Below, piece by piece: positions 2,846-58,212 of a stretch of DNA of 64,000 nt. The notes beneath the pieces were generated by a model. The model was not told the DNA's origin. It saw only the letters and a list, made by a program, of their open reading frames with translations, and searched no databases. The stretch is from IMG/VR virus record IMGVR_UViG_3300032053_000031, one strand, 5' to 3'. The position numbers and the translations under genes are program-made. The number at the start of each line of letters is the position of its first letter. Position 1 is the first letter of the stretch. The DNA is from a virus. Taxonomy: Duplodnaviria; Heunggongvirae; Uroviricota; Caudoviricetes.

Positions 2846-2932
2846 GGGTAGGAGGCCATACGGGAATTGGCGGCGGACTGTAAATCCGCTGGGCGAGAGC
2901 CCACGTGAGTTCGATTCTCACCCTACCCACCA
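2846..2932 (+). tRNA. tRNA-Tyr (anticodon GTA), long variable arm, CCA encoded
   Basis: Acceptor gggtagg/cctaccc; anticodon stem gcgga/tccgc with loop ctGTAaa; T-arm gtgag-ttcgatt-ctcac; ends a-cca. Confidence 0.85.
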
Positions 2933-2936
2933 ATTT

Positions 2937-3010
2937 AGGCCTGTGGTGTAATGGTAGCACAAGGGTCTTTGAAGCCCTTAGATAGAGTTCGAGTCTCTAC
3001 AGGCCTGCCA
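2937..3010 (+). tRNA. tRNA-Gln (anticodon TTG), CCA encoded
   Basis: Acceptor aggcctg/caggcct; anticodon stem agggt/gccct with loop ctTTGaa; T-arm tagag-ttcgagt-ctcta; 4 nt after tRNA-Tyr. Confidence 0.8.
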
Positions 3011-3629: not shown

Positions 3630-3704
3630 GCCCAGTTAGCTCAACGGTAGAGCACTCCCTTTACGTGGGATAGGTTGTAGGTTCAAATCCTACACTGGGC
3701 ACCA
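3630..3704 (+). tRNA. tRNA-Val (anticodon TAC), CCA encoded
   Basis: Acceptor gcccagt/actgggc; D-arm gctc-aacggta-gagc; anticodon loop ttTACgt; T-arm gtagg-ttcaaat-cctac; ends a-cca. Reading depends on the stem register; an Arg(ACG) reading is rejected. Confidence 0.7.
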
Positions 3705-5528: not shown

Positions 5529-5751
5529 CCTCTGCTGTCTTATACATCCATATACTAAATGTAAATTCTGTGGTATAGGATACTGCAGCAATTGTTATCT
5601 TATTGTATGGGGAGCATCTCCCATAAAGGATGACGCTGGTTATCCTATTGATCCTCATTCGAATAACATATGGGATAAAAGAATAATGCCCTGTACTGTT
5701 AGAACGACATATATTAATAAACTTAGTCACTGGTTTGGTCCTACAAAATGA
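5515..5751 (+). CDS. LCC-family small Cys-rich protein
   Basis: MEQNNLCCLIHPYTKCKFCGIGYCSNCY. Confidence 0.65.
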   Translation: MEQNNLCCLIHPYTKCKFCGIGYCSNCYLIVWGASPIKDDAGYPIDPHSNNIWDKRIMPCTVRTTYINKLSHWFGPTK

Positions 5752-7136
5752 TAATCTCTGGGTCGCCTCTTCACAAAGTAATCGTAGCCTTACGAGAAGC
5801 TGGTGGTCTGCCTTTAGTCGTAGGTGGTGCTGTTAGAGATACCATTCTCAACAAGTCTATAAAGGACTACGACATCGAGATTCATAAGCTGAATGCGGAA
5901 CAGATAGAAAGGATTCTATCTCAGTTTGGTTCCGTAGACAAAGTGGGAGCAGCTTTCGGAGTCTTCAAGATCGCGGGATGGGATGTCGACTTTAGTGTAC
6001 CTCGTAGGGATAACAAGATAGGGAAGGGTCATAAAGGATTTGATACTGAGTGTGACCCTTTCATGGGAATCGACGAAGCAGCTAAGCGACGTGATCTTAC
6101 TATCAATTCGATGGCATATGATCCCATCGACAATAAACTCTTTGACCCATTCGGTGGTAGAGCGGACCTGGAGAAGAAGGTCTTGAGAGCGACGGATCCT
6201 AAGTCGTTTCTTGAAGACCCTCTTCGAGCTCTCCGCGCAGCACAGTTCGCTGCAAGGTTTGAGATGTGGGCTGATGTAGAGCTCACCGAACTTTGTAAGG
6301 AAGCAGCCCTCTCCGAGCTTCCAGGGGAGAGGATCCTTCCGGAGTTTGAGAAACTTCTGGTGAAGGGAAAGACACCTTCCATTGGTCTTAAGTTTATGCG
6401 TCGTGCTAATCTGTTAAGGTTCTTTCCAGAACTAGAAGTTATGGTAGGTTGTGAACAGGAGTATGAGTGGCATCCCGAAGGGGATGTATGGGATCATACT
6501 CTCTTAGTAGTAGATGCCGCTAGAGGATTAACGGATGACTTTATCGTGATGATGTCTGCACTGTGTCACGATATGGGAAAGCCGTTAACAACGAAGTTCG
6601 AAGATGGAAGAATACGTTCTTTAGGACATGAGGATGCTGGAGTAGAACCAACAAAGAAGTTTCTGGAAAGACTTCGTGCTCCAATAGACTTTACCAAAGC
6701 GGTTACTTGTTTGGTGAAGTATCATCTATCACCTCATCACTTCTATACGAACGGTGCATCTTCGAAAGCAATTCGTAGACTCGCAAGACATCTCGCAGAG
6801 GCTAGTCTCACTCTGCGGGAGATAGAAATTCTAGCGAGGTCTGATCATTATGGAAGGCGTACACCTGATGCTTGGACAGGAGAGTATCCTGCGGGCGATT
6901 GGCTTCTGGAGAAGATGAAAACGTTAGATATAACTTCTGTTCAGAAGGCAAGTAACTGCGTAGTGCTAGGACGCCACGTTCTAAAGCGACCAGGATTCAA
7001 ACCGGGAAAAATTATAGGAGAGATCTTGAGAGCTTGCCAAGAATACGAAGACGAAACAGGAGAGAAAGATCCTGATAGGATACTAGATACAGTCCTCTCA
7101 AAATTCAACTTCCCTGACCATAGAAGCGAGATATGA
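5748..7136 (+). CDS. cca: tRNA nucleotidyltransferase (CCA-adding enzyme) with HD domain
   Basis: LVVGGAVRD head-domain motif of class II polyA polymerase/CCA enzymes; RDLTINS; C-terminal HD motif (ALCHDMGK); 462 aa. Confidence 0.85.
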   Translation: MIISGSPLHKVIVALREAGGLPLVVGGAVRDTILNKSIKDYDIEIHKLNAEQIERILSQFGSVDKVGAAFGVFKIAGWDVDFSVPRRDNKIGKGHKGFDTECDPFMGIDEAAKRRDLTINSMAYDPIDNKLFDPFGGRADLEKKVLRATDPKSFLEDPLRALRAAQFAARFEMWADVELTELCKEAALSELPGERILPEFEKLLVKGKTPSIGLKFMRRANLLRFFPELEVMVGCEQEYEWHPEGDVWDHTLLVVDAARGLTDDFIVMMSALCHDMGKPLTTKFEDGRIRSLGHEDAGVEPTKKFLERLRAPIDFTKAVTCLVKYHLSPHHFYTNGASSKAIRRLARHLAEASLTLREIEILARSDHYGRRTPDAWTGEYPAGDWLLEKMKTLDITSVQKASNCVVLGRHVLKRPGFKPGKIIGEILRACQEYEDETGEKDPDRILDTVLSKFNFPDHRSEI

Positions 7137-11159: not shown

Positions 11160-11703
11160 GACGCTTGTCGGAGTCGGAGTCGTGACGGGAGTGCTGGGGG
11201 TGATCTTCCTCTTCAGCATCATCGGGGTCAACAACAACTGCATCACGCAGGAAGCCACCATCAAGGCTCAGTACGGTCAGAACCAGAACAACTACGACAA
11301 CATGTGGAAGAGGATCAAAGAGGTGGCGCAAGTCCCCTCGATGTACACGGAAGACCTGAAGAAGGTCTACGACAGCGCCATCAGCGGCCGCTACGGAGCG
11401 AACGGCTCGAAGGCGATGTTCAACTGGATCAAGGAGCACAATCCGAACTTCGACGGCACGCTGTACAAGCAGGTGCAGCAGGTGATCGAAAGCGGGAGGC
11501 TTTCCTTCGCGGACGATCAGAAGATCCTGCTGGACAAGAAGAGGGGCTACGAGACGTATCTAAATCAGTTCCCCACCAACGTCATCGGGAAAAATCTTTT
11601 AGGCTTCCCGAAGATTGAACTCGCAAAGTATGACATCGTCACCTCGGAAGAGACGACGACGGCGTTCGAGACGAAGAAGGTGGACGAGATCAAGCTGCGC
11701 TAA
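11152..11703 (+). CDS. LemA-family membrane protein
   Basis: N-terminal TM helix then AQYGQNQNNYDN...YLNQFPTNVIGKNLLGFP, a LemA-like signature; GGAGG RBS; in GC-rich island. Confidence 0.65.
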   Translation: MNKTLVGVGVVTGVLGVIFLFSIIGVNNNCITQEATIKAQYGQNQNNYDNMWKRIKEVAQVPSMYTEDLKKVYDSAISGRYGANGSKAMFNWIKEHNPNFDGTLYKQVQQVIESGRLSFADDQKILLDKKRGYETYLNQFPTNVIGKNLLGFPKIELAKYDIVTSEETTTAFETKKVDEIKLR

Positions 11704-16058: not shown

Positions 16059-16222
16059 TTAAACCTTTTCCAGCATGCTGCGGTAAGTTATGTAAGGTAT
16101 GTTGGATGGCTGAGATAACTAGTTCCGGGAAATGGAATGTATTACACTCTTGGGAAAAAGGAATAGAGTTTGTTTGTCCCATATGTAAGAAAGTCTCTTT
16201 CATAGAGGACTTAACTCCATGA
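16028..16222 (+). CDS. LCC-family small Cys-rich protein
   Basis: MDITPKLCCLVKPFPACCGKLCKVCW; overlaps the 3' end of the upstream gene in another frame. Confidence 0.5.
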   Translation: MDITPKLCCLVKPFPACCGKLCKVCWMAEITSSGKWNVLHSWEKGIEFVCPICKKVSFIEDLTP

Positions 16223-16428
16223 AAACAAAACTTTGTTGCATCGTTAATACATATGCCTTTTGTGTCTGTTGCAAAGAGCGATGGTGCTCTTCCTGTTGGT
16301 CTAAGGGAACATGGTCGCAGTGTCCCATACGCCACAGTTCTCTAAAAAGTCAAGGTAGACACTATACAGCTCCCTACATAGATTATATAGGAGCTGGCTG
16401 TGAAATTCATAGGCAATATATTATATGA
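16219..16428 (+). CDS. LCC-family small Cys-rich protein
   Basis: MKTKLCCIVNTYAFCVCCKERWCSSCW. Confidence 0.65.
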   Translation: MKTKLCCIVNTYAFCVCCKERWCSSCWSKGTWSQCPIRHSSLKSQGRHYTAPYIDYIGAGCEIHRQYII

Positions 16429-16643
16429 TTAAACTCTGCTGCGCGGTTAACACATTTGCTATCTGTACCATTTGTAATGCCATGTTCTGTGATGAGTGTT
16501 GGTTTTGTGATAGAACACATGATTCGGGGTATGCTTCACCTGGCGACGAATCAGAAGAAAGACGATGGTATTGTGCCGATAAAAAAGTAGCTTGGAGAAG
16601 AGGTGAAATAGAAGCACCCTATCATCTAGTAAGAGCAAAGTGA
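16425..16643 (+). CDS. LCC-family small Cys-rich protein
   Basis: MIKLCCAVNTFAICTICNAMFCDECW. Confidence 0.65.
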   Translation: MIKLCCAVNTFAICTICNAMFCDECWFCDRTHDSGYASPGDESEERRWYCADKKVAWRRGEIEAPYHLVRAK

Positions 16644-16652
16644 AGAAAGGAT

Positions 16653-16695
16653 CCAACCCCGCTTTTTTAAGATGGAAAAGGAGTATTATATTTAG
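16653..16695 (+). promoter_or_regulatory. conserved intergenic element (copy 1 of 3): CCCCGCTTTTTT...GGAAAAGGAGTATTATATTTAG
   Basis: Near-identical to 32461..32500 and 57211..57256; sits about 25 nt upstream of the next ATG. Reads as a terminator-like GC/T-run followed by a TATTATAT -10-like box. Confidence 0.5.
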
Positions 16696-16718
16696 CAGGC
16701 GAGCGAGCAATTAACTAC

Positions 16719-17135
16719 ATGACAATTGAAAAAGAACCGATTTGGCCTATGAGTGAAGAAGAACTTGTGCAATGGAAAAAGGAGCAAGCAGTTGCTTCCA
16801 AAGTCAAATCACAAGAAGTATCTATTCTCTCTGTGGCAGAAAAAGCAATGTATGAGAAAGAAAAAAAGACGTCCGCAGACACTTTTAAGGCTGAGATGAA
16901 AGCCTTACGTCATGAGCTCGCCCCTGTGAAGACCACAACAACTGCAGCGACAACCGAACAACCTCGACGGCAAAATCGGCTTGGACAGACTCATGAGATA
17001 GACATTCTAGTGAAAGAAGGAAAGAACGACCAAGAAATAGAAAAAATCCTTAGACAGAAGATACCAGCTTATCCCGCCGAAAAATGGCCCAAACTTATTA
17101 AACTTAGGAGGTATCACTTAAAGAATGACAAATGA
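16719..17135 (+). CDS. hypothetical protein
   Basis: 138-aa ORF downstream of the conserved element. Confidence 0.5.
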   Translation: MTIEKEPIWPMSEEELVQWKKEQAVASKVKSQEVSILSVAEKAMYEKEKKTSADTFKAEMKALRHELAPVKTTTTAATTEQPRRQNRLGQTHEIDILVKEGKNDQEIEKILRQKIPAYPAEKWPKLIKLRRYHLKNDK

Positions 17136-17223
17136 AGATATAGCATATATCGCCGGTATCATAGACGGTGACGGCTCAATAGTAGTCTACCGTGCAAGCT
17201 CGGAAGATCCTAAAGAGAGTTAG
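17125..17223 (+). pseudogene. LAGLIDADG homing-endonuclease remnant (32 codons, truncated)
   Basis: MTNEDIAYIAGIIDGDGSIVVYR matches the LAGLIDADG dodecapeptide; the ORF ends after 32 aa, and a +2 frame continues with IRNKTDQILICIKSS. Confidence 0.5.
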
Positions 17224-17348
17224 ACCTTTCATTAGAAATAAGACGGATCAGATTCTTATTTGTATTAAAAGTAGTCTCTCTAAAGAGGACTGGATTACTG
17301 TTAAAAGGCTACACCATTTGAGTAAGTAGTATCTCGGAGGCACCGCGA

Positions 17349-17603
17349 GTGACATCAAAGACACGTAAGCTTGTAACGTTGCTACTGAAGCAAGACAGCA
17401 AGCAGCGTATGGGTCTTCTTTCTTTCCTGCCACCTCAAGTCCTGAGCAGGTTAGGAAAAAGCCCCAAGCTCGTGAAGCAGATCCAGCAGGACTCGAAGTT
17501 GGCACTTCCTCTTCAAGTAGTCGAGGATAGCGCCCGGGAGTTCATCGCGCACCACCCTAAGAAGGCGGCGTCGCTGAAGATCGATCCCATCATGTACAAC
17601 TGA
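17349..17603 (+). CDS. hypothetical protein (GTG start) in GC-rich island
   Basis: GGAGG then GTG 17349; 84 aa; codon usage matches the GC-rich island. Confidence 0.4.
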   Translation: MTSKTRKLVTLLLKQDSKQRMGLLSFLPPQVLSRLGKSPKLVKQIQQDSKLALPLQVVEDSAREFIAHHPKKAASLKIDPIMYN

Positions 17604-17620
17604 CAGGAGGCACGTAAACC

Positions 17621-18682
17621 ATGAGACCCATGGAAGTGAAGGAGTTCTTGAAGGGATGCATCCTCAAGAACCTGAGGGTTCCCATCGTCATCAAGGGCGA
17701 AGCGGGAATCGGCAAGTCGCAGATCGTACAGCAGGCGGGCATCGATTGCGAACGCTTCGTCATCGATCTGCGCCTGGCTCAGATGGAACCGGGAGACCTT
17801 ATCGGTCTGCCGAGGACGGATCCGGAAAGCCGCCGAACGGTCTGGCTGGCTCCGGAGTGGTGGCCGACGAAAGAGAAGTACCCGAAGGGCTGCGTTGTCT
17901 TCCTCGACGAGCTCAACCGCGCACCGGTAGACGTGCGCCAGGCGATCTTCCAGGTTCTCACAGAGTGGAAGATGCACACGCACACGCTGCCAGATAACAC
18001 CTTCCTGATCGCCGCTATCAACCCTGAGGACGGCGGGAAGATGAACTACCAGGTCGAGCAATTCGACCCTGCCATGGTGAACCGCATGTGCTTCATCACC
18101 ATGGAGCCGGACACGCAGCAGTGGATCAACTGGGCCACGGAGAACGAGCTCGATGAGATGGTCATCAAGTTCATCGCGGTCCACAACGCCATGCTGCACG
18201 GCGCATGCGATACGGGACCGTTCCCGTCGCCGAGGACGTGGCACAAGCTGTCCGATCTGATGAAGGCTCAGGCGATCCCGTCGTTCGCTCAGAGCGAGGT
18301 CATCAGCGGACTCGTCGGCGAGAAGCCGGCGATCAGCTTCATCCGGTTCCTCGACAAGAACTACAAGAAGCCGGTCAGCGGCCGCGAGGTGCTGGACGAG
18401 TTCGTGAAGTACAAGGACAAGCTTGTCAAGCAGCGGAACGACGAGACATTCGCGACGATCACGGAGCTCGTCGGTCTCCTCGGCAACGGCGAGAAGCTGA
18501 AGAAGAACCAGCTGCAGAACGTCGTCGACTTCTCCCTGGCGATCAAGCAGGAAGAGAAGATGGCCTTCTTGAAGAAGCTGCCGAACCCCATCCTGAGCAA
18601 GCTCGGAAACGCTTCTCAGGAGCTGTGCAACGCGATCGCAGCCATCGCAACGGAGCTTGACAAGGAATTGCGAAAGAAGTAG
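17621..18682 (+). CDS. MoxR-like AAA+ ATPase
   Basis: Walker A GEAGIGKS; Walker B VVFLDELNRAP; sensor motifs; AGGAGG RBS; 353 aa. Confidence 0.85.
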   Translation: MRPMEVKEFLKGCILKNLRVPIVIKGEAGIGKSQIVQQAGIDCERFVIDLRLAQMEPGDLIGLPRTDPESRRTVWLAPEWWPTKEKYPKGCVVFLDELNRAPVDVRQAIFQVLTEWKMHTHTLPDNTFLIAAINPEDGGKMNYQVEQFDPAMVNRMCFITMEPDTQQWINWATENELDEMVIKFIAVHNAMLHGACDTGPFPSPRTWHKLSDLMKAQAIPSFAQSEVISGLVGEKPAISFIRFLDKNYKKPVSGREVLDEFVKYKDKLVKQRNDETFATITELVGLLGNGEKLKKNQLQNVVDFSLAIKQEEKMAFLKKLPNPILSKLGNASQELCNAIAAIATELDKELRKK

Positions 18683-18699
18683 TCAAAGCCGGCGATGAC

Positions 18700-18738
18700 A
18701 ATGCTGCCCACCCACCATAGAGGTGGGTGGGCAGCATT
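18700..18738 (+). terminator. perfect 17-bp inverted repeat (aatgctgcccacccacc-ataga-ggtgggtgggcagcatt) downstream of MoxR gene
   Basis: Seen directly in the sequence; GC-rich stem with no U-tract. Confidence 0.5.
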
Positions 18739-18947
18739 CGAGGAGGAGATGACAATGGAATTTCTAGAGTGGCGGTTTACAGAGCATTGGTTCTGGAGTA
18801 CCTTACTTACTCCCATGTTTTGTTTTGCCTGGGCTTGCTTCAAAGGATTATTCTGGCGGGGAGTGATTTCATTCATCTTGGCATTTTCAGTCACTGCGAA
18901 TTCAAATAGCTGACGGAAATGACATAGCGCCAATACGGGAGGGCCTA

Positions 18948-19145
18948 ATGCTTCTTGACCCGAAGACAAAGATGCGTATCGACCACATGACCTATGAGGA
19001 GCTTCTGCGCAAGTGGCGATTCGCTCCGGCCGGTGACATGATGTTTCAAGGCGAATCTGGTACATACTACTCTAAACGTATGGCAGAGCTGCGAGACCGA
19101 GAATCCAACCCTGCTGCTGTCTCCAAGACGGTAGGCTGGAAATGA
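18948..19145 (+). CDS. hypothetical protein
   Basis: 65-aa track ORF. Confidence 0.4.
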   Translation: MLLDPKTKMRIDHMTYEELLRKWRFAPAGDMMFQGESGTYYSKRMAELRDRESNPAAVSKTVGWK

Positions 19146-19146
19146 G

Positions 19147-19410
19147 ATGAATGAGAAACTTTGTTGTCTAGTCAAGTCACACGTGACATGCTATTACTGT
19201 CAAGAAATGTGGTGCGAGGAATGTTATAGCAAAGTTCTTCCTCCGTATTCCTGGAGAGAGGGGAGAGATGAAGAAAACATATGGAAAGGATCTTCTTGTC
19301 CTAAAGGAAACTTCCCAGGAAGGTGGGGAGGCCATTACACAATGGTGTTTGGAAAAGGTGTTTTAGAGCTGTCTAAGGTAGAGTCTTATAGGCGACGTGT
19401 TCTACCATGA
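19147..19410 (+). CDS. LCC-family small Cys-rich protein
   Basis: MNEKLCCLVKSHVTCYYCQEMWCEECY. Confidence 0.65.
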   Translation: MNEKLCCLVKSHVTCYYCQEMWCEECYSKVLPPYSWREGRDEENIWKGSSCPKGNFPGRWGGHYTMVFGKGVLELSKVESYRRRVLP

Positions 19411-19706
19411 TTACTCTTGAACAGCAACTCATCATAACACGTAATGTGGGAGATGTTGTTCGCACGTATGATGGTAACTATAATATCATTCTCGAGGTAC
19501 AACAATTTGTATATGTATTGAAAGTAATTGGTAAATGTCTTTGGGAAGGTAAATATATTTGGAATGACGTTCGAAAAGGCTATAATGTATCTAAGACCGA
19601 TATAAAACTTGTTTCATCGAAAGAAGCGTCATTAGCAAAGTATTTCGAAGCACTACGTCCCGGAAAATGGACTCGAAGAGACATAGAACTTGCTCAACTA
19701 GAATGA
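19407..19706 (+). CDS. hypothetical protein
   Basis: 99-aa track ORF; ATGA overlap. Confidence 0.45.
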   Translation: MITLEQQLIITRNVGDVVRTYDGNYNIILEVQQFVYVLKVIGKCLWEGKYIWNDVRKGYNVSKTDIKLVSSKEASLAKYFEALRPGKWTRRDIELAQLE

Positions 19707-19906
19707 AGAAACAACGATTATGTTGTGTAGTGAATACATTATTCAAGTGTAAAGGTTGTAAGGAATTTGTATGTAGGGAATGTTACTTAAAACAAATCTT
19801 TCCGAAAGATGTCAAACTCCAGGAAAAACTTCTAAGGATGGGCTTTCTAGAAAGTTTGGTTGGCGAGATAAATAATTATCGATGCGTGAACTGTTGCTCA
19901 GATTAA
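19703..19906 (+). CDS. LCC-family small Cys-rich protein
   Basis: MKKQRLCCVVNTLFKCKGCKEFVCRECY. Confidence 0.6.
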   Translation: MKKQRLCCVVNTLFKCKGCKEFVCRECYLKQIFPKDVKLQEKLLRMGFLESLVGEINNYRCVNCCSD

Positions 19907-19909
19907 TGT

Positions 19910-20206
19910 ATGAACGTAAAACAAAGAAAGTTATGTTGCATAGTCAATAAGTTCTATAGGTGTGTCTTTTGTAAGGAATACATTTGTATCACATGTAATA
20001 GCGGATCTAATAATCAAAGTGATAGATTCGCCTTTGAGTGTATTAACCCATCAGTCAAAAGAAGGGGAAGCTTCCATCCAAGTTGTGATAATCATTGGGT
20101 GATTCCATATGGAGCATTCAATAGCTACATAGAAGAGTTGCAAGGTTTAGACTTAGAAATCTACGAGGAGGTAGTAAAATGGGATGGGACCAATCGTACT
20201 CAGTAG
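19910..20206 (+). CDS. LCC-family small Cys-rich protein
   Basis: MNVKQRKLCCIVNKFYRCVFCKEYICITCN. Confidence 0.65.
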   Translation: MNVKQRKLCCIVNKFYRCVFCKEYICITCNSGSNNQSDRFAFECINPSVKRRGSFHPSCDNHWVIPYGAFNSYIEELQGLDLEIYEEVVKWDGTNRTQ

Positions 20207-20595
20207 AGGGAGTAGATTCTTTGCGTCTCCGGCTTTCAGACATAGATGTCAAAGAGCTTATCCAGAAAGCACTCGATGAGAAAGGAATCAAAGTGGTCTC
20301 CGAAGAGGAATTCTGGATCGACGAGTTCTATGACCAAAAGGGAAAGAAGATCGTCCTCTCAGACGGAAGAGTCTTCGAACACAAACTCGTCCGCAGCGAT
20401 CGGTGGGATGACGAAGGTCAGGACTACTACGAACTTCGTCCTCAGCAGGAAGAGGTACATACAAAGATAATCAACCACGAGATCGAATACTTCGACCCCA
20501 AAGTAGAAGAGGGGGTCATAGAAGATGTACCACAACTTCCTCCAGCGGCATTAGACCAACTGCGTAGAGAAGAACTTCCGCCAGAGCTTCTCTAG
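20179..20595 (+). CDS. hypothetical acidic protein
   Basis: 138 aa, E/D-rich. Confidence 0.45.
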   Translation: MGWDQSYSVEGVDSLRLRLSDIDVKELIQKALDEKGIKVVSEEEFWIDEFYDQKGKKIVLSDGRVFEHKLVRSDRWDDEGQDYYELRPQQEEVHTKIINHEIEYFDPKVEEGVIEDVPQLPPAALDQLRREELPPELL

Positions 20596-20600
20596 GAGGA

Positions 20601-20819
20601 GTGATGCTCAACTATATTCTCAAAATCATGGCAGCGTGTTTGGAAAATCTACCTTGCCGCTTCGGGCTCCATACCGGCAAGTGGAATGCTCCTACTAAGG
20701 AATCCTGGGCTAGATGGCTAGCTGGATCAAAGGTACCAGGAAGTGATCAAACTCGTCTGACTCAGTCCCGTACTTGTTCCCTTTGTGGCTTAGTACAGAA
20801 AAGATACATTGAGAATTAA
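20601..20819 (+). CDS. hypothetical protein
   Basis: Track ORF. Confidence 0.3.
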   Translation: MMLNYILKIMAACLENLPCRFGLHTGKWNAPTKESWARWLAGSKVPGSDQTRLTQSRTCSLCGLVQKRYIEN

Positions 20820-20834
20820 CTCTAGGAGGAGCAG

Positions 20835-21257
20835 ATGCCTTGTGAGGGAGATAAGGTCCTTGGACAGAACACCGAAGCTCAATGCTATCGGGTTGATGCT
20901 TGCATGGGATGCGACAAGTGCACCATCATGTGTCCCGGTTGTGAGAACTGCAACGTCGAGCCAGCGAAGCCTCGCGAGCTGGAAGTAGGCGACTACATCG
21001 TAGTTGCCTCGAGTCTGATCACCGATCCTAACTGGACGGAGAAGTGGACTCCGCTGATGGATATGGCTATCGGACGCGTCGGCTACATCGAGGAGATGCA
21101 GGTGCAGAAAGGCTATCGGGTTCGCTTCAAGACAACGAAGAACGACTCCCTTTCGGATCTTTGGTTCCCGAGAGGCTCACTGAAGCTGGCAATGCCCAAC
21201 GACAACTCGACCGACAAAATGATTAAGGAAGTGAAGAAGGGCAACGAAGCTATATAG
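20835..21257 (+). CDS. hypothetical protein with Cys-rich N-terminus
   Basis: GGAGG RBS; CYRVDACMGCDKCTIMCPGCENC. Confidence 0.45.
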   Translation: MPCEGDKVLGQNTEAQCYRVDACMGCDKCTIMCPGCENCNVEPAKPRELEVGDYIVVASSLITDPNWTEKWTPLMDMAIGRVGYIEEMQVQKGYRVRFKTTKNDSLSDLWFPRGSLKLAMPNDNSTDKMIKEVKKGNEAI

Positions 21258-21310
21258 ATTGTCGGAGGGGGATTGGAGAATTCCCACTCCCAACCAACGG
21301 AGGCACACAA

Positions 21311-21469
21311 ATGGCTATCTTGTACAAAGAGGTAGTTATCGAACTCGACCCTGGCGAAAAAGAAAGGATTGTAGTACTTCTTAAAGGGTCGCAAGCGAGT
21401 CCATACATCATCAATGTTAAGATGTCTATGGGCGGAAACGTTATCGTCGATAGCGAGGATGCTGACTAA
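21311..21469 (+). CDS. small hypothetical protein (52 aa)
   Basis: Short ORF not in the track; ACGGAGG RBS 7 nt upstream. Confidence 0.35.
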   Translation: MAILYKEVVIELDPGEKERIVVLLKGSQASPYIINVKMSMGGNVIVDSEDAD

Positions 21470-21484
21470 ACGGAGGCAAAAGCA

Positions 21485-22693
21485 ATGGCGGACATGGATA
21501 AGGTCCAGAAGGCGATCATCAGCCTGTTGAACGGAGAAGGTGTGTTCTATGCCTCTCTGATCATGCAGATGAGAAGAATTCATGCCCCTGACTTACCTAA
21601 GGGTGCCCTGATGGGAGTATCAGTAGAGAACGGACGTATCGTCCTTCACGTCGATCCCCCAAGGCTCGAGGAGCATTCCATCGAGTCGGTTGCAAGAATC
21701 TTGGAGCACGAGTGTCTCCACTTGGTTCTCGAACACTTAACGAGGAAAGAAAGTAAGCATCACCTCGTCTGGAACTACGCGACTGACCTCGCGGCGAACA
21801 GTCTGATCAACGGGATGGACGTAGGACTCATTCCTGGAAAGGCTCCTTTCGCTGACTTCCCAGCGAAAAAGACTTCCGAGTTCTACTACGCGAAGTTGAA
21901 AGATAAGTTCGAAATGCATACGATCACCGTCAACGCCGATGGGTCCGTAACCATCAAGGACGATAAGACGGGAAAAGAAATCACGGTGCATCCTTCCGGA
22001 GACCACAGCGGCTGGAAGGAACTCGATGCGGGGAAGGACTCTCTGACGAGGGAAGTCATCAAACAGGCGGTGGCGGAAGCTTACTCCCATGCGAAGCAGC
22101 AGGGCAGATTCCCTGGAGGCTTGCAGGAGATCATCGAGGAGCTTCTCGGGAAGGAGAAGTTCAACTGGAAGAGGGTGCTGAAGCAGTACATCGGCAACGC
22201 GGTGAAGGCGGACAGCAAGTACTCCTGGAAGAGGGAGAGCAAGAGGTTCGGAGACACCCAGAAGGGGAAGGTCCGGAACAGAACCATCGATCTGGCGATA
22301 GCCATCGACACCTCAGGTTCCATCTCCACGGAAGAGTTTCAGGAGTTCATCACCGAGATCAAAGGGATCATGTCGTCGTACAAGACGAGCGTGAACGTCA
22401 TCGAGTGTGACGCCGAAGTGCAGAAGGTGTATTCGCTGAAGAAGCATGCGAAGGTCGATACGAAGTTCAAGGGACGTGGAGGTACGGACTTCAGGCCGGT
22501 CTTCAAGTGGTTCGAAGACAAAAAGAAGTTCCCGGGACTGCTGGTCTTCTTCACAGATGGAGAAGGAGCGTTTCCTGAAAAGGAACCCGCGAAGATGAAG
22601 ACACTCTGGGTGATCACATCCCGAAGCTACGTCGACAAGGTACCCTTTGGGAAACTATTAAAGATCCCCAAGGATAAGGGGAATAACGACTAA
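21485..22693 (+). CDS. VWA-domain protein with N-terminal HExxH putative metallopeptidase domain (partner of MoxR ATPase)
   Basis: HECLH (HExxH); MIDAS DxSxS motif in DLAIAIDTSGSIS; FTDGEG; ACGGAGG RBS; 402 aa. Confidence 0.7.
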   Translation: MADMDKVQKAIISLLNGEGVFYASLIMQMRRIHAPDLPKGALMGVSVENGRIVLHVDPPRLEEHSIESVARILEHECLHLVLEHLTRKESKHHLVWNYATDLAANSLINGMDVGLIPGKAPFADFPAKKTSEFYYAKLKDKFEMHTITVNADGSVTIKDDKTGKEITVHPSGDHSGWKELDAGKDSLTREVIKQAVAEAYSHAKQQGRFPGGLQEIIEELLGKEKFNWKRVLKQYIGNAVKADSKYSWKRESKRFGDTQKGKVRNRTIDLAIAIDTSGSISTEEFQEFITEIKGIMSSYKTSVNVIECDAEVQKVYSLKKHAKVDTKFKGRGGTDFRPVFKWFEDKKKFPGLLVFFTDGEGAFPEKEPAKMKTLWVITSRSYVDKVPFGKLLKIPKDKGNND

Positions 22694-22875
22694 TGGAAAT
22701 AGTTTTAGTCACAAACGGAAACATCGTAAAGACTTGGAAGGTGACCTCCGATAAGGAATCGGAGTATATCCTTTCAACGCCAGAGGGCCAACAGAAGCTT
22801 ATAGAAGAGATAAAGAATTCAGCCTTCTGGACAGAGAAAGCAGAAGAGAAGATCAGGGGAATGAAGTGGATATAA
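22693..22875 (+). CDS. hypothetical protein
   Basis: Track ORF. Confidence 0.35.
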   Translation: MEIVLVTNGNIVKTWKVTSDKESEYILSTPEGQQKLIEEIKNSAFWTEKAEEKIRGMKWI

Positions 22876-23123
22876 TTGGACCTCCTTCAAGGTTTGATGG
22901 AACTAAACTTTGTTGGTGGTGTAAATACTTCTACTACGACCAGGGAAGTCAAGGTTATTCAGACATGACTCCAGGGTGGGAAGGACGCTTCGAGTGCACT
23001 AAGGATCATTGGAAAATGAACTTAGTGGACACTTCAGAAGAATCGTTTAGAAACAATATCCACCACGCCGTAGACTGTTCTGACTTCGAATCAGTACTAC
23101 TTCAAAAGACACTAGGAGGCTGA
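22866..23123 (+). CDS. hypothetical protein (weak LCC-like KLCWWC)
   Basis: Track ORF; GTKLCWWCKYFYY. Confidence 0.3.
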   Translation: MDIIGPPSRFDGTKLCWWCKYFYYDQGSQGYSDMTPGWEGRFECTKDHWKMNLVDTSEESFRNNIHHAVDCSDFESVLLQKTLGG

Positions 23124-24528: not shown

Positions 24529-24585
24529 TTTATCCGCGAGGTAGCCGCCCTCCTGAAGTGCCTCCACGGCTACCTCGCCTAATTT

Positions 24586-24828
24586 ATGAAATGTCTAATA
24601 TGCTACGTGAAAGCAACACACTCATGCGTTATATGCGGCCGAAAGAAATGTGCCGAGTGTCGTAAGAAGGAAAAGATAGCCTGGTGGAATCCTACGTTAT
24701 GTTTTAAGATCCATGAAGATAAAGAACACTTCGAATACTGGGCACAAGAATATCCCGGCTACGCCACGGAAGAAAAGGAGTTAAAGTGGAAAAAGGTTCA
24801 ACAGCCGTCATCGAAAAACCCGGCGTGA
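24586..24828 (+). CDS. LCC-family (CLxC variant) small Cys-rich protein
   Basis: MKCLICYVKATHSCVICGRKKCAECR. Confidence 0.55.
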   Translation: MKCLICYVKATHSCVICGRKKCAECRKKEKIAWWNPTLCFKIHEDKEHFEYWAQEYPGYATEEKELKWKKVQQPSSKNPA

Positions 24829-25079
24829 CAGATGGCACGAAGAAGGATAGCTTCTTCGGCTGGCGTACTGTTCTTTTTAATTGCAACTGTCACAGCTTCG
24901 ATCAAGTCGAATGGCAACTGATCAAGGCTATCCGTTGCTCCCCTGAGAAGGCACATCAGTACGCCTTGGCAGTTCATACCAAAGGAAAGGTTGAGGTATA
25001 TGAGGGGTACAAAGAGAAAGCGGAGGCGATCGCCGATGTCCTTGGAACAATCGGTCTCAGAGTCACAGTCTCTCAGTAA
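24786..25079 (+). CDS. clpS: ClpS-like ATP-dependent Clp protease adaptor (GTG start)
   Basis: AAGGAG then GTG 24786; sequence fits the ClpS consensus up to 5-residue windows (...FDQVEWQLIKAIRCSPEKAHQYALAVHTKGKVEVYEGYKEKAE...); about 97 aa. Confidence 0.55.
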   Translation: MEKGSTAVIEKPGVTDGTKKDSFFGWRTVLFNCNCHSFDQVEWQLIKAIRCSPEKAHQYALAVHTKGKVEVYEGYKEKAEAIADVLGTIGLRVTVSQ

Positions 25080-30256: not shown

Positions 30257-30303
30257 TCAAAGTCGACAGAGAAGGTTCTACTCCTTCTCTGTCGCACAAT
30301 TTT

Positions 30304-31085: not shown

Positions 31086-31156
31086 GCCGGCGTAGCTCAA
31101 TGGTAGAGCAGCGGTTTTGTAAACCGCCTACGGGGGTTCGATTCCTCTCGCCGGCT
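31086..31156 (+). tRNA. tRNA-Thr (anticodon TGT), CCA not encoded
   Basis: Acceptor gccggcg/cgccggc; D-arm gctc-aatggta-gagc; anticodon stem gcggt/accgc with loop ttTGTaa; T-loop ttcgatt. Confidence 0.7.
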
Positions 31157-35345: not shown

Positions 35346-35599
35346 TCATCGAATCCAGAGGAGATGGTACCGATCTTTGTTGTATGATACATCCTTTTGG
35401 GATATGTGTTAAGTGTAAACTCACTGTCTGTTTAGAACACTGGGGTGATGAAGTACGCAGAGAGCAAGGTCTGCTATCATTATCAATGTCTACCTTAAAC
35501 AGAGAAATAGGTATAGCTATTTGTCCTGAATGCAGTGTTGGTATGTGTCAGCTGGAATATTCAAAAGATTTCATCCCAAAGGACTTTAAAGTTAAATAA
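35342..35599 (+). CDS. LCC-family small Cys-rich protein (GDGTDLCC subgroup)
   Basis: MIIESRGDGTDLCCMIHPFGICVKCKLTVCLEHW; shares an identical 36-nt stretch with 40488. Confidence 0.65.
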   Translation: MIIESRGDGTDLCCMIHPFGICVKCKLTVCLEHWGDEVRREQGLLSLSMSTLNREIGIAICPECSVGMCQLEYSKDFIPKDFKVK

Positions 35600-35600
35600 C

Positions 35601-36719
35601 ATGCAAAACTTAAACGCTTACTTTATCGATCATATGTTCTGGGACTTCCCTAAGCTTCTTGAAGCTCATGCGGAAAGGAATCTGGTTAAGCTAAAGCAGT
35701 CCAAAAGGTTCCCTCATCTGTCTATACTTCATTATTCCGATGAGATAATCTACAGCAGAGCTACATGGACTCCCTTTGCGAAGGCGTGTCGAGGCGTTAT
35801 AATCGATCGGAAGAACAAGAAGATTCTAGCTAAGCCATTCTCTAAGTTCTTTAATTTAGGGGAAAAGGAAGCCCCTTCTATAAAGGATTTGGAAAAAAAG
35901 TCCGGATACACGGTTACCGAAAAGTTAGACGGCTCCATGATCATAGCCTACTATGATGAAGAAACCAATAAGTTTTATATGTCCACGAAGGGAGATCTTG
36001 ACTCTGAGCATGGTCAGTATGCAACGCCGTTGTTTCCTCCGCAGTTAATGGATAAGAAATTAATAACTTCTCATACTCTGATGTTCGAACTGATATGTAA
36101 AAAGTATCAGATCGTTATTCCTTATGATAAGAAAGGCTATGAAGAGGGGCTTTATCTTATTGGCATAAGAGAAAATACATCTGAGAAGTTATTCTCTCCC
36201 AAGGAAGTACAGGCCTTTGCGAAAGAATTTGGTCTGCGAACGTATAAGACGTACGACTATCCTACTCTCGATTCTATAGTCGAAGGAGTAAAGACTCTCC
36301 CCTTTACCGAAGAGGGCTTCGTTGTCAGATTCGATGGCGACGAGACTATGGTAAAGATAAAGTCACCTGAATATTTACGAGTACACAGGTTCGTTTCTAA
36401 TCTTACATCTCGCAACCTTTTAGATATCGTTATCGAAGGCGAAGAGAAAAATGTACTAGACAATCTATATCTAGTACCTGAAGAGTACCGTGAAGATGTT
36501 AGGAACGCTATAGAAGGCTATGTCAAGGATGCTTACATCTTTAGAAAAGAGTGTTACGACCTCTTTGCCAAAGCCCCTAAGGGGAGCAGAAAAGAATATG
36601 CTCTTTGGGTAGCTCATTCAACTCCTACGGACTATAAAAAGTTTTTGTTCAACATCTTTGATAACGAACCGATAGAACTAAAGGACATCTACATTCACTT
36701 CAGAAAGACAAAGCGATGA
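35601..36719 (+). CDS. ATP-dependent RNA/DNA ligase-family nucleotidyltransferase (Rnl2-like)
   Basis: Motif I KLDGS (KxDG); motif IV-like EGFVVR; motif V VKIKS; 372 aa; start is an internal Met of track ORF 35535..36719. Confidence 0.55.
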   Translation: MQNLNAYFIDHMFWDFPKLLEAHAERNLVKLKQSKRFPHLSILHYSDEIIYSRATWTPFAKACRGVIIDRKNKKILAKPFSKFFNLGEKEAPSIKDLEKKSGYTVTEKLDGSMIIAYYDEETNKFYMSTKGDLDSEHGQYATPLFPPQLMDKKLITSHTLMFELICKKYQIVIPYDKKGYEEGLYLIGIRENTSEKLFSPKEVQAFAKEFGLRTYKTYDYPTLDSIVEGVKTLPFTEEGFVVRFDGDETMVKIKSPEYLRVHRFVSNLTSRNLLDIVIEGEEKNVLDNLYLVPEEYREDVRNAIEGYVKDAYIFRKECYDLFAKAPKGSRKEYALWVAHSTPTDYKKFLFNIFDNEPIELKDIYIHFRKTKR

Positions 36720-41665: not shown

Positions 41666-41854
41666 ATGAATGAAAGAACACTACTTGCTAGAGTCTTAAA
41701 GGAAAAAAGACTGTGCTGCTACCTTCATCCTAAAGTAAGATGCACTGCATGTAATGTAATGCTCTGTGATGATTGTGATAAAGAAACAGGGCCAGAAGTA
41801 GGTTTTTGTAATGGAATTATTAAGCATCATTGGTCTTATTCTATGGAACTATAG
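41666..41854 (+). CDS. LCC-family small Cys-rich protein (LKEKRLCC subgroup)
   Basis: ...[30 protein letters not shown]. Confidence 0.6.
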
Positions 41855-41862
41855 GAGGCGAA

Positions 41863-58173: not shown

Positions 58174-58212
58174 AGTAGATAGCCTCCGAGGTTACCTCGG
58201 AGGCTATCTACT
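58174..58212 (+). terminator. perfect 18-bp inverted repeat (agtagatagcctccgagg-tta-cctcggaggctatctact)
   Basis: Seen directly in the sequence; no U-tract follows. Confidence 0.5.

Follow-up and report, generated by a model that had tools for sequence, protein, structure and literature searches.

A MoxR-class ATPase and HExxH-VWA gene pair with an unusual codon signature: probably a long-resident module of a large phage

Introduction

Is the sharply GC-rich stretch around a MoxR-class ATPase gene in this tailed phage an island brought in from a GC-rich donor, or is it a resident part of the phage genome? The question was addressed using a window of 64,000 nucleotides (IMG/VR record IMGVR_UViG_3300032053_000031), which is the whole stretch of DNA analysed here, together with homologous loci of other phages. 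We conclude, with a probability of roughly 0.7, that the region is a two-gene module long resident in a large phage (at least 118 kb) and not an imported island.

The ATPase gene and its VWA partner

The two genes of the module and the features between them are as follows:

17621–18682 (+), MoxR-class (AAA_5, NorQ/CbbQ-like) AAA+ ATPase, homologue of N4 gp24, 353 aa
18691–18703 and 18745–18757 (+), direct repeat GG(C/A)GATGACAATG, family D6, bracketing the hairpin
18700–18738 (+), perfect hairpin, 17-nt arms (18700–18716 and 18722–18738) and 5-nt loop
19147–19410, 19667–19906 and 19910–20206 (+), three small Cys-rich (CCxxN...CxxC...CxxC) paralogues
19407–19706 (+), small ORF with no assigned family
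21485–22693 (+), HExxH putative metallopeptidase (DUF2201_N) joined to a VWA/MIDAS domain (DUF2201), homologue of N4 gp25, 402 aa

The product of 17621–18682 matches Pfam AAA_5 (30.8 bits, cut-off 22), phrog_1297 (E 3.7e-65) and N4 gp24, in agreement with the MoxR-class AAA+ ATPase named in the initial annotation. Walker A and Walker B are conserved, with E97 invariant and D96 nearly so, and a Foldseek search with the structure model (pLDDT 87) retrieved NorQ (E 3e-11) and CbbQ2 (E 6e-9). The same annotation had placed a protein with an N-terminal HExxH and a C-terminal VWA domain about 2.7 kb downstream as the partner of the ATPase. This gene starts 2802 nt past the ATPase stop, and its product matches DUF2201_N (E 1.5e-22), DUF2201 VWA-like (E 2.4e-27) and phrog_1314 (E 4.3e-77). 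The HExxH motif occupies residues 75–79 and the MIDAS motif DTSGS residues 275–279; among 59 sequences, H75, E76, H79, D275, S277, S279 and D358 are invariant, and H84 and T334 are at least 95% conserved. In the structure model, integrin I domains are matched over the C-terminal half, and residues 54–97 give a weak Pfam SprT-like match (E 0.028). The expected partnership is reflected in gene linkage: of 83 phage loci, 70 have the two genes linked in the same orientation, all 13 exceptions being truncated contigs. In L007 and L008 they are 0.3–0.6 kb apart; in the window they are separated by small genes that include three of its 40 Cys-rich paralogues. Some relatives carry two divergent VWA paralogues (~50% identical) per one ATPase, which suggests several targets.

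The hairpin, first noted as a perfect 17-bp GC stem at the end of the region, begins 18 nt past the ATPase stop. Its arms are 100% complementary, it folds with an energy of -36.3 kcal/mol (z = -7.0 relative to shuffled sequences), it has no U tract, and a terminator scan did not report 18700–18738. It is probably an mRNA 3' stem-loop for termination, processing or stabilisation. Similar hairpins follow genes at 58174, 30264 and 24536 in the window, and a search of IMG/VR returned no copy of this one. The likely start of the next small ORF (ATGACAATGGAA, preceded by GAGGAGGAG) lies in the second copy of the repeat.

The variable slot upstream of the ATPase gene

Upstream of the ATPase gene the following features were found:

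16719–17135 (+), conserved gene, 138 aa, no assigned function, left syntenic edge of the variable slot
17125–17223 (+), LAGLIDADG stub, pseudogene of an I-CreI-type single-motif homing endonuclease, 32 codons and stop
17186–17329 (+), open stretch after the stub (QARKILKRVRPFIRNKTDQ...), in the +1 frame
17349–17603 (+), ORF84, small lineage-specific gene just 5' of the ATPase gene, GC3 (third-position GC) 0.67

The homologues of the 138-aa protein in L001 (143 aa) and L004 (195 aa) both end in ...KLIKLR.YH..., and blastn homology to L001 ends at 17136. The stub, for which the source annotation calls no gene, reads MTNEDIAYIAGIIDGDGSIVVYRASSEDPKES and then a stop. The peptide stays below Pfam thresholds; it does match the phage endonuclease family phrog_5046 (E 6.4e-7, residues 3–25 to profile positions 5–27 of 161) and the chains of I-CreI and I-MsoI (E ~1e-4), so that the 32-codon LAGLIDADG fragment originally taken for a decayed endonuclease keeps that reading. 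Intact relatives are 133–143 aa long and 74% identical to the stub over residues 1–23. The N-terminal helix motif IAYIAGIIDGDGSI is common to the stub, I-CreI/I-MsoI and the free-standing family phrog_5046; unlike I-CreI and I-MsoI, the stub has only 32 in-frame codons and lacks the beta-sheet DNA-binding core. The fragment had also been said to continue in another frame. The stretch 17186–17329 is indeed open, and it weakly and colinearly resembles the I-CreI helix LHNFLTQLQPFLKLKQKQ (sub-significant domains); that it is the frame-shifted C-terminal remainder of the same endonuclease is possible.

The stub is what is left of a free-standing homing endonuclease that lodged in a variable slot next to a resident core gene. 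In the same slot of L006 an intact HNH endonuclease lies 141 bp upstream of the ATPase gene, and in L004 an endonuclease or remnant lies between the VWA paralogues. An intact relative in L090 sits directly upstream of a DNA polymerase I gene, the usual lodging beside conserved genes. Of 56 upstream neighbours of the ATPase gene in phage loci, one is an endonuclease. ORF84 has a homologue in L001 (9678–10004, BLASTP E 9e-13), and none was found in L004, L006, L007 or L008. As a separate observation, ORF84 residues 10–38 resemble ATPase residues 305–331 (E 0.002).

Comparison with known systems

Judged by its sequence, the pair belongs to an already described family, that of N4 gp24/gp25 and the jumbo-phage MoxR-peptidase-vWA genes. 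The ATPase matches N4 gp24 (AAA ATPase) directly (tblastn, 28% identity, E 1e-13), the VWA protein matches genes like gp25 (vWFA), and in phage Pokken a gp24 homologue is followed immediately by a 'putative metallopeptidase' gene. Both gp24 and gp25 are core genes of the N4-like phages (Schitoviridae), with functions listed as unknown (PMC2784036). Identity to gp24/gp25 is, however, only 25–30%, the window genes are 2.8 kb apart with small genes between them, the phage is of a different and much larger type, and the GC3 outlier that is extreme here is moderate in Pokken. The architecture, with an N-terminal metallopeptidase fused to vWA in the second gene, is identical to that of the MoxR AAA+ and metallopeptidase-vWA 'chaperone-cochaperone' pair of jumbo-phage group 2.2, for which a role in virion assembly was proposed (Iyer et al., 2021, PMC7824862). 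Homologues are present in GAP32, CBB and AR9.

Structurally, the ATPase model comes closest to NorQ (TM 0.64 on the target) and CbbQ2, and the NorQ/NorD and CbbQ/CbbO systems likewise encode a separate VWA/MIDAS partner nearby. Sequence identity to NorQ/CbbQ is only 14–18%, and the phage ATPase, as modelled, has an extra C-terminal helical extension of ~100 residues (~255–353), NorQ chains being ~254–257 residues long. NorD and CbbO are not known to carry the HExxH domain that is present in the phage VWA partner. As a tentative parallel, FtsH, and Wss1/SPRTN with Cdc48, also combine an AAA+ unfoldase with a zinc HExxH peptidase; here, in contrast, the two activities lie on separate proteins bridged by VWA, and the homology seen is confined to the zincin motif.

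In Bas54 (Vequintavirus), the MoxR ATPase 0063 is reported to be required against the defence system DS-28 (HIDEN-SEQ preprint, 10.1101/2025.11.20.689424), and beyond Bas54 no experimental phenotype for a phage MoxR was found. The sister phage Bas55 encodes a tblastn homologue of the window ATPase, bas55_0062 ('MoxR ATPase', 26% identity, E 3e-16), of which bas54_0063 would be the orthologue. No DUF2201 VWA gene adjoins bas55_0062, and Escherichia phages give about half as many VWA matches as ATPase matches. Since Vequintavirus MoxR genes seemingly lack a DUF2201 partner, the defence precedent may not transfer.

Proposed function of the module

The biochemical mechanism suggested here is borrowed wholly from NorQ/NorD and CbbQ/CbbO. 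By this analogy, a hexamer of the ATPase would dock the VWA protein, whose MIDAS site would grip a target protein by one of its acidic residues; the target would be remodelled at the expense of ATP, and the HExxH domain would cut it or process itself. We tentatively suggest that the target may be a host protein, in takeover or counter-defence, rather than a part of the virion.

That the module is instead a virion-assembly chaperone with a maturation peptidase is a view we consider unlikely. It has been put forward for the identical domain architecture, as cited above, it has a precedent in Acidianus two-tailed virus, where a role in tail development was shown, and it would agree with the place of the module in the conserved core of N4-like phages; a stoichiometric assembly factor would also be well served by high expression, if that is true. 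However, the genes share an early or auxiliary region here with ClpS, ClpP and genes for RNA repair, and both here and in Pokken their neighbours have early/middle, replication and auxiliary roles, the structural genes being far away. The two VWA paralogues per ATPase of some relatives also speak against assembly, as does the homologous MoxR of Bas54, which the phage can do without in the laboratory host but needs under certain conditions, against a defence system.

GC profile and codon usage

The GC content of 17621–18682 is 0.588, that of the whole window 0.425. Compared with the 1-kb windows outside it (mean 0.422, sd 0.035, maximum 0.547) the ATPase gene stands at z = 4.8, with a step up at ~17330 and down at ~18750, close to the limits of 17349–18740 first given for the GC-richer region. 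With a GC3 of 0.856 (window mean 0.412, sd 0.112) the gene is the extreme outlier of the window, and its GC12 of 0.453 is at the backbone level; the excess is purely synonymous and confined to third codon positions. The long spurious ORFs in other frames that had been attributed to this composition are three, and their extents are not conserved in relatives:

17513–18244 (-), ORF inside the ATPase gene, 243 aa
17656–17997 (+), ORF inside the ATPase gene, 113 aa
18205–18660 (+), ORF inside the ATPase gene, 151 aa

The preferred codons of the ATPase gene are ATC, TTC, AAC, AAG, CAG, CTG, CCG and CGC. Ile is encoded by ATC (24/24), Phe by TTC (16/16) and Asn by AAC (17/17), and TAC and CAC also reach 100%, while AAG accounts for 31 of 32 Lys codons, CAG for 16 of 17 Gln codons and GAG for 21 of 28. 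The phage encodes tRNAs Gln-TTG, Val-TAC and Thr-TGT. Of the corresponding codons, CAA supplies 6% of Gln in the ATPase gene (background 54%), GTA 8% of Val (38%) and ACA 12% of Thr (33%). The VWA gene (GC3 0.72) retains backbone-type AGA/AGG, GGA and CCT codons, so the two partners are biased differently. Other conserved long genes are not rich in GC3 (RtcB 0.41, DNA ligase 0.43, Rnl1 0.44); the small genes flanking the ATPase gene are AT-rich, and the GC3 excess ends at the gene borders.

Persistence of the GC3 excess in relatives

In each of five related large-phage loci (L001, L004, L006, L007 and L008; genomes 37–46% GC, background GC3 0.30–0.45) the ATPase gene lies at the equivalent place, with 57–78% protein identity, and has the highest GC3. 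Its mean GC3 z over 80 loci is +2.2. In 62 non-redundant loci its GC3 exceeds that of the other ORFs of at least 200 aa (sd among them 0.055) by 0.149 (98% positive, Wilcoxon p 4e-12), and the GC3 of the VWA gene exceeds that of the same ORFs by 0.089 (95% positive), although p-values from these loci overstate independence because the loci are phylogenetically related. The same force towards G/C-ending codons thus acts, more weakly, on the VWA partner.

Identical amino acids of ATPase orthologues share the identical codon at fractions of 0.66, 0.58, 0.56, 0.38 and 0.58, where codon usage alone predicts 0.58, 0.51, 0.51, 0.34 and 0.50, respectively; synonymous sites are near saturation and nearly randomised. 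The bias is therefore actively maintained and not left from a recent transfer, its persistence at randomised silent sites implying a continuing force. The homologous DNA shared with the closest relative is exactly the ATPase gene (17599–18666). In all orthologues GC3 is slightly lower over the first 50 codons. In an Akashi-type test, G/C-ending codons were not enriched at conserved residues (pooled OR 0.96, p 0.8), and there is thus no sign of selection on translational accuracy.

What keeps the G/C-ending codons

The force that we infer is selection on expression. The ATPase gene uses what are presumably host-type codons and avoids the A-ending codons read by the phage tRNAs, and would thus be translatable efficiently from host tRNAs alone; the ATPase is probably made early and in quantity. 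In Pokken (N4-like, 55% GC), whose host genus is GC-rich, the genes with the highest GC3 are those of SSB and the major capsid protein, which indicates that GC3 can track abundance in such phages; the gp24 homologue ranks 12th of 45 genes and gp25 is average.

It is rather improbable that the selection is for robustness of mRNA or tRNA instead of speed, with a transcript that resists AU-directed endoribonucleases, or a translation that avoids the U34 tRNAs (Lys, Gln, Glu) targeted by anticodon nucleases, so that the module could be produced even while the host attacks. The gene-wide shift without a link to residue conservation, the AAG, CAG and GAG counts, the strong 3' stem-loop and the RNA-repair load of the phage (RtcB, two RNA ligases, CCA-adding enzyme and Thg1, with PNKP in relatives) would all fit. 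However, this explanation is here indistinguishable from ordinary expression-linked codon selection, and avoidance of U34 tRNAs does not explain the complete preference for TTC, AAC, TAC, CAC and ATC.

GC-biased gene conversion is very unlikely. In this view recombination would be concentrated in the module, for example because neighbouring homing endonucleases cut both strands there in co-infection, and repair would favour G/C alleles. It is true that endonucleases or remnants adjoin the module in the window and L006 and that one lies between the L004 paralogues, that related phages occur together, sample ERZ27247916 having yielded both the window contig and L001, and that GC3 unlinked to residue conservation fits a translation-blind process. 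Yet GC3 shows no decrease with distance from the endonuclease side, the first 50 codons being the lowest; the excess stops at the gene borders and occurs in dozens of loci with no adjoining endonuclease; and the preference for CGC rather than AGA involves more than the third position.

Origin of the region

The initial annotation read the region as a GC-rich island mobilised by the LAGLIDADG endonuclease. The GC difference is real and the LAGLIDADG peptide is not part of an intact ORF, but the reading fails on other grounds. A recent acquisition of the ATPase gene, with or without flanks, from a GC-rich donor could draw on the sharp GC steps, the endonuclease remnant on the left edge, the hairpin on the right and the HNH endonuclease of L006, but is scarcely credible given a GC12 equal to the backbone (a gene native to a genome with GC3 ~0.86 is expected to have GC12 ~0.55 from GC1/GC2 versus GC3 trends), a gene present and GC3-rich in all clade relatives, saturated silent sites, nearest homologues outside the clade at most 47% identical, no repeats flanking the GC-rich region beyond chance level and the single endonuclease among the 56 upstream neighbours.

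With the module as a long-term resident, the free-standing homing endonuclease would have settled later in the variable slot beside the conserved ATPase gene and then decayed, as a separate event. The region would accordingly represent an ordinary phage module with an unusual codon signature.

Base composition of the ATPase gene

The initial annotation had described the GC-rich stretch around a MoxR-class ATPase gene as an island mobilised by a decayed homing endonuclease. The features that bear on this are:

17125-17223, remnant (stub) of a LAGLIDADG endonuclease
17349-17603, small gene (ORF84)
17621-18682 (+), ATPase gene, 353 aa, homolog of N4 gp24
18700-18738, hairpin
21485-22693 (+), VWA gene, 402 aa, homolog of N4 gp25

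The GC peak is real. GC content is 58.8% in 17621-18682 compared with 42.5% for the whole window, and the ATPase peak, the maximum of the window, lies 4.8 sd above the 1-kb windows elsewhere (mean 0.422, sd 0.035, max 0.547), with GC climbing from ~17330 and dropping at ~18750. Division of the gene by codon position placed the deviation at third positions only, with GC at third positions (GC3) of 0.856 and at first and second positions (GC12) of 0.453, the GC12 of neighboring genes being 0.42-0.45. The deviant composition at all codon positions expected of an island was not found, and the GC excess of the ATPase gene is synonymous. Among 165 plus-strand ORFs (mean GC3 0.412, sd 0.112) the ATPase gene has the most extreme value, followed by the VWA gene (0.72).

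The codons of the ATPase gene are almost uniform: Ile is ATC in 24 of 24 cases, Phe TTC (16/16), Asn AAC (17/17), Tyr TAC (4/4), His CAC (5/5), Lys AAG (31/32) and Gln CAG (16/17), with CTG, CCG, ACG, CGC and GGC also favored. The protein is itself rich in Lys, Ile and Asn, which is the amino-acid composition of a low-GC genome. As GC at first and second positions follows that at third positions, a native gene of a genome with GC3 near 0.86 is expected to have GC12 near 0.55, and both the amino acids and the lower GC12 count against a foreign origin. Conservation alone does not explain the high GC3, since other well-conserved long genes of the window lack it (RtcB 0.41, DNA ligase 0.43, Rnl1 0.44, ClpP 0.51).

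The ORFs nested in the ATPase gene, one of 243 aa antisense and two of 113 and 151 aa on the plus strand, were rejected as overlapping genes. Their extents differ in the related loci L001 and L004, which indicates that they are by-products of composition, as had initially been held for long ORFs in the other frames.

Third-position GC in related phages

An identical ATPase protein was found on a 117,657-bp contig, and proteins of 57-78% identity on contigs of 23-210 kb with RNA ligases, PNKP, ClpP, ClpS and HNH endonucleases, which are related large phages. Five such loci, with a genomic GC of 0.37-0.46 and 31-47 ORFs each, all have the ATPase gene as their top ORF by GC3 (0.82, 0.76, 0.72, 0.45, and 0.66, where the local means are 0.43, 0.45, 0.43, 0.30, and 0.40, respectively). 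Across 80 loci, a set which takes in more distant IMG/VR phages with 29-43% identity, its GC3 has a mean z of +2.2 and ranks first in 40%. A stricter control used the other ORFs of at least 200 aa (sd 0.055) within 62 non-redundant loci. The GC3 excess over these long ORFs was +0.149 for the ATPase gene (98% positive; Wilcoxon p 4e-12, a value that overstates independence as the loci are mutually related, the direction of the excess being uniform) and +0.089 for the VWA gene (95% positive). Across many phages both genes are consistently outliers in GC3, to the greatest degree in this clade, a property which seems to have gone unreported.

At residues identical between the window and its closest orthologue, the same codon is used at 0.66 of positions, compared with 0.58 predicted from codon usage, and codon sharing with each of the orthologues is only slightly above such a prediction. 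This indicates that silent sites have turned over with the bias retained in each lineage, which excludes a recent, unameliorated import and requires a standing force. The ATPase gene is also present in all five clade relatives, with the VWA partner downstream on the same strand, and so does not show the patchy presence of an island, although the left-flank gene is recognizably conserved in L001 and L004 only. A blastn search of GenBank phages with 16500-23000 gave no match. The imported GC island is therefore not upheld, as the excess is synonymous, the gene is GC3-rich in all five relatives and its silent sites have been replaced.

The endonuclease remnant and its slot

The stub consists of 32 codons ending in TAG, with the next frame open to 17329, as first described, and no longer intact LAGLIDADG ORF is present. 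It carries the LAGLIDADG helix motif. In phrog_5046 it aligns with profile positions 5-27 of 161 (E 6.4e-7), I-CreI and I-MsoI are matched at E about 1e-4, and the Pfam scores of 14-16 bits fall under the cut-offs of 22.5-23.1. It lacks a complete single-frame domain, which would span about 130-165 aa. Over stub residues 1-23 there is 74% identity to intact relatives, which are 133-143 aa long; one of these lies just upstream of the gene for DNA polymerase I. The stub is a pseudogene. The frame-shifted tail weakly resembles the I-CreI PFL helix; if this resemblance is real, a deletion has removed the beta-sheet core, about 55-60 residues in length. The frame-corrected peptide yielded no candidates in a large protein search and no tblastn match in GenBank phages.

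DNA homology with L001 stops at 17136, the end of a 138-aa conserved gene, and restarts at 17599, leaving 22 nt to the start of the ATPase gene. The content of this slot varies:

Window, stub and ORF84
L001, two small membrane-like ORFs and an ORF84 homolog (E 9e-13)
L004, three Cys-rich genes
L006, an intact HNH_3/NUMOD4 endonuclease, 141 bp from the ATPase gene

On other contigs of the same phage the slot lies outside the region covered. With a LAGLIDADG stub in the window and an HNH gene in L006, two endonuclease families have landed beside the ATPase gene within one clade; across phage loci an endonuclease is its upstream neighbor in only one of 56. This is the ordinary habit of free-standing homing endonucleases near conserved genes, and their adjacency does not show that an endonuclease brought the ATPase gene; the proposed mobilisation was accordingly abandoned. 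The ATPase region has a dead endonuclease on its left and a single 12-mer as flanking repeat, and this exact repeat (GCAAGCTCGGAA), at the LAGLIDADG break point and the ATPase 3' end, was judged to be due to chance (1 seen, about 0.2 expected).

Residues 10-38 of ORF84 (17349-17603; TLLLKQDSKQRMGLLSFLPPQVLSRLGKS) resemble ATPase residues 305-331 (18533-18613; SLAIKQEEKMAFLKKLPNPILSKLGNA) with a BLASTP E of 0.002, a similarity that is not significant in L001. From this alignment ORF84 could be a mimic of a C-terminal helix or, with weak support, a partial duplicate.

The ATPase and its VWA partner

The ATPase (phrog_1297, E 3.7e-65) possesses Walker A (GEAGIGKS, residues 26-33; motif sought GxxGxGK[ST]) and Walker B (VFLDE, 93-97; hhhhDE) sequences, in which 26 homologs share G26, G29, G31, K32, S33, and E97 without exception and D96 almost without exception. 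It passed the Pfam AAA_5 cut-off (30.8 bits, cut-off 22) and fell below that of AAA_3, MoxR proper (20.6 bits, cut-off 27). A PDB sequence search with the single protein gave nothing; its sequence profile matches the AAA domains of midasin (E 1.4e-27), NorQ (E 1e-4), CbbQ, and McrB. Foldseek with the predicted model (pLDDT 87) returned NorQ as best match (E 3e-11) and CbbQ2 (E 6e-9), from which the phage protein differs by an additional C-terminal helical extension of roughly 100 residues. The MoxR-class assignment holds in the AAA_5, NorQ/CbbQ/midasin sense, and not in the narrower AAA_3 sense.

The VWA protein matches phrog_1314 over its full length (E 4.3e-77) and contains the DUF2201_N putative metallopeptidase (80.9 bits, cut-off 23.2) and DUF2201 VWA-like (95.9 bits, cut-off 26.4) domains of Pfam, bearing out the HExxH and VWA partner described downstream. 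Among 59 sequences the HExxH and MIDAS (DxSxS...T...D) residues H75, E76, H79, D275, S277, S279, and D358 are invariant, with T334 conserved in 95% and H84 in 98%. In the predicted model (pLDDT 85) the C-terminal half resembles I domains and VWA domains (E 3e-5 to 1e-3), an integrin-I-type VWA fold; no specific structural match was found for the N-terminal domain, and PDB sequence searches, singly or as a profile, gave nothing meaningful. The phrog_1314 family is tagged 'HNH endonuclease' in PHROGs and many phage records. An HNH domain was undetectable in the protein with Pfam, and the label is probably a propagated mis-annotation.

The supposed partnership is supported by gene order. Of 83 loci, 70 have a DUF2201 VWA gene on the same strand, 40 bp to 3 kb from the ATPase homolog; the contigs of the remaining 13 end <1.5 kb downstream. 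The spacing is 0.3-0.6 kb in L007 and L008, and in the window the gap comprises 2.8 kb of small genes, three Cys-rich paralogues among them. For one ATPase, three relatives possess two VWA paralogues that are ~50% mutually identical, of which the window has the distal type only:

L004, 14103-15371 and 18397-19602
L006, 13443-14651 and 16596-17807
L007, 11606-12826 and 13600-14793

Of 50,697 sequenced phage records, 754 contain the ATPase and 537 the VWA protein. N4 gp24 is a direct match of the ATPase (E 1e-13), and N4 gp25-like genes are matches of the VWA protein. In the N4-like phage Pokken the gp24 homolog is followed by a 'putative metallopeptidase.' N4 gp24 and gp25 are listed as an AAA ATPase and a vWFA protein of unknown function (PMC2784036), and the same MoxR and metallopeptidase-vWA pair has been described in jumbo phages (Iyer et al., 2021; PMC7824862). 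The module adds one member to a known phage gene pair that is still functionally uncharacterized. Neither protein was matched by PADLOC or NCBIfam, which leaves the pair unconnected to any catalogued defense system or named bacterial family.

Neighborhood of the module

Forty small plus-strand ORFs (about 60-110 aa; none on the minus strand) occur across 845-55100, for example at 16219-16428, 19147-19410, and 19910-20206, and share the starting motif CC-x2-[N/H/K]-x3-9-C-x2-C-x3-12-C-x2-4-C. Judged by this motif they form a very large paralogous expansion of putative Cys-rich, zinc-ribbon-like proteins. Such paralogues are also found in the relatives L001 (8671-8916), L004 (9196-9795), and L006 (8324-8680), and one relative's gene has a weak Pfam Phage_zn_bind_8 match.

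The window encodes a CCA-adding/poly(A) polymerase with an HD domain, a T4 Rnl1-type ligase, a second RNA ligase, RtcB and a Thg1-like tRNA-His guanylyltransferase (genes at 5748-7136, 35535-36719, 42745-43755, 46212-47447, and 62333-63091), as well as a DNA ligase and two radical SAM proteins, with PNKP in relatives. This unusually full RNA/tRNA-repair set suggests pressure from tRNA-cleaving host defenses. A ClpS homolog (24786-25079) follows the VWA gene at a distance of 2.1 kb, ClpS is also found near the VWA genes of L007 and L008, and ClpP is at 41830-42471, giving a proteolysis-themed neighborhood. The 10 kb past the window end hold auxiliary genes only and the start of an 856-aa minus-strand gene. 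A search with a gene close to the other end of the window gave just one contig, of 4.1 kb and from a different sample.

Other genes observed in the window are:

49847-50707, phiEco32-like COOH-NH2 ligase
50704-51258, 184-aa ORF between the ligase and the amidotransferase
51270-52070, class-II glutamine amidotransferase
63518-63922 (-), HNH_3 endonuclease, corresponding to 11186-11590 of locus L094

The ligase-amidotransferase pair recurs in L008 (7273-9555). Around the HNH_3 gene the ORFs of at least 150 aa are almost all plus-strand, and it is the only minus-strand gene noted.

Stem-loops

The perfect 17-bp hairpin reported after the ATPase gene was located as described (arms 18700-18716 and 18722-18738, 5-nt loop, -36.3 kcal/mol, z -7.0). 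Its tail, CGAGGAGGAG, does not have the U tract of an intrinsic (rho-independent) terminator, and the hairpin was not listed in a terminator scan of the window nor conserved in L001 or L004. It was rejected as a repeated element, with no further copy in the window or IMG/VR. It is one of at least four strong stem-loops that occur 8-18 nt past stop codons (-24 to -42 kcal/mol with flanks), all without U tracts, the others including perfect stems of 19, 12, and 12 bp at 58174-58212, 30264-30294, and 24536-24578, each 8 nt past a stop codon. In this phage they may represent one class of 3' RNA element. A 13-nt direct repeat, GG(C/A)GATGACAATG, flanks the hairpin at 18691-18703 and 18745-18757, and the start codon of the following small ORF probably lies in its second copy, so that the hairpin together with the Shine-Dalgarno sequence may represent an insertion or duplication of 54 bp.

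Origin of the codon bias and proposed function

The phage carries four tRNA genes (Tyr-GTA, Gln-TTG, Val-TAC, and Thr-TGT), located at 2846-3010, 3630-3704, and 31086-31156, with nothing further in an Rfam scan, and the last three read A-ending codons. These codons make up 6, 8, and 12% of the respective choices in the ATPase gene compared with 54, 38, and 33% in the backbone, which is the pattern expected where an AT-leaning phage infects a host with a preference for G/C-ending codons and one phage gene has been tuned to the host tRNA pool. In Pokken (55% GC), whose host genus Stenotrophomonas is GC-rich, the SSB and major capsid protein have the highest GC3, indicating that GC3 can track abundance in such phage-host pairs; the Pokken gp24 homolog ranks only 12th of 45. 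The best explanation of the GC3 is gene-specific, expression-linked selection, by which the ATPase gene would be translated from host tRNAs, probably early and in quantity.

Selection for mRNA or tRNA robustness is a live variant of this explanation. Selection for translational accuracy is unsupported, as G/C-ending codons were not in excess at conserved residues in an Akashi-type test (OR 0.96). Biased gene conversion is unlikely. GC3 varies little along the gene, with a slight dip over the first 50 codons in every orthologue, which argues against a conversion gradient from the upstream endonuclease. An imported ATPase cassette is likewise unlikely, given the turnover of silent sites.

By analogy with NorQ/NorD and CbbQ/CbbO, it can be inferred that the ATPase hexamer would bind the VWA protein, that the MIDAS site would capture an acidic residue of a target protein and that ATP hydrolysis would remodel it. 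The HExxH site would then cut the target or the adaptor itself, as its strict conservation suggests.

We favor a host-directed role in takeover or counter-defense, with a probability of about 0.4, on account of the early/auxiliary neighborhood (RNA repair, ClpS, and ClpP), the host-type codons and the paralogous adaptors. A MoxR ATPase of Bas54 is needed against a predicted defense system (preprint 10.1101/2025.11.20.689424), and its sister gene bas55_0062 is homologous to the window ATPase (E 3e-16), although, unlike the module, it has no DUF2201 gene beside it. A machine for virion assembly or maturation, as proposed by Iyer et al. (2021; PMC7824862) with Acidianus two-tailed virus as precedent, appears to us rather unlikely in view of that same neighborhood. 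The host-directed role can be extended to a module selected clade-wide, and largely family-wide, for host-type G/C codons, which would allow immediate synthesis from host tRNAs, independent of the phage's own A-codon tRNAs and robust to RNA/tRNA-directed host defenses, of a first-wave ATP-driven protease or remodeller disabling a host, possibly a defense, protein; this extension is a long shot.

A sharp GC peak beside a mobility-gene remnant can thus be the codon-usage signature of a resident gene, and a GC3/GC12 split together with a look at relatives quickly decides the island question. The gene pair is widespread and core to N4-like phages, yet without a demonstrated function, and the GC3 outlier status of both partners points to unusual expression demands which may guide experimental priorities, for example N4 gp24/gp25. 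If the extended reading is true, the codon signature would be usable as a marker of early counter-defense genes in uncultured phages.
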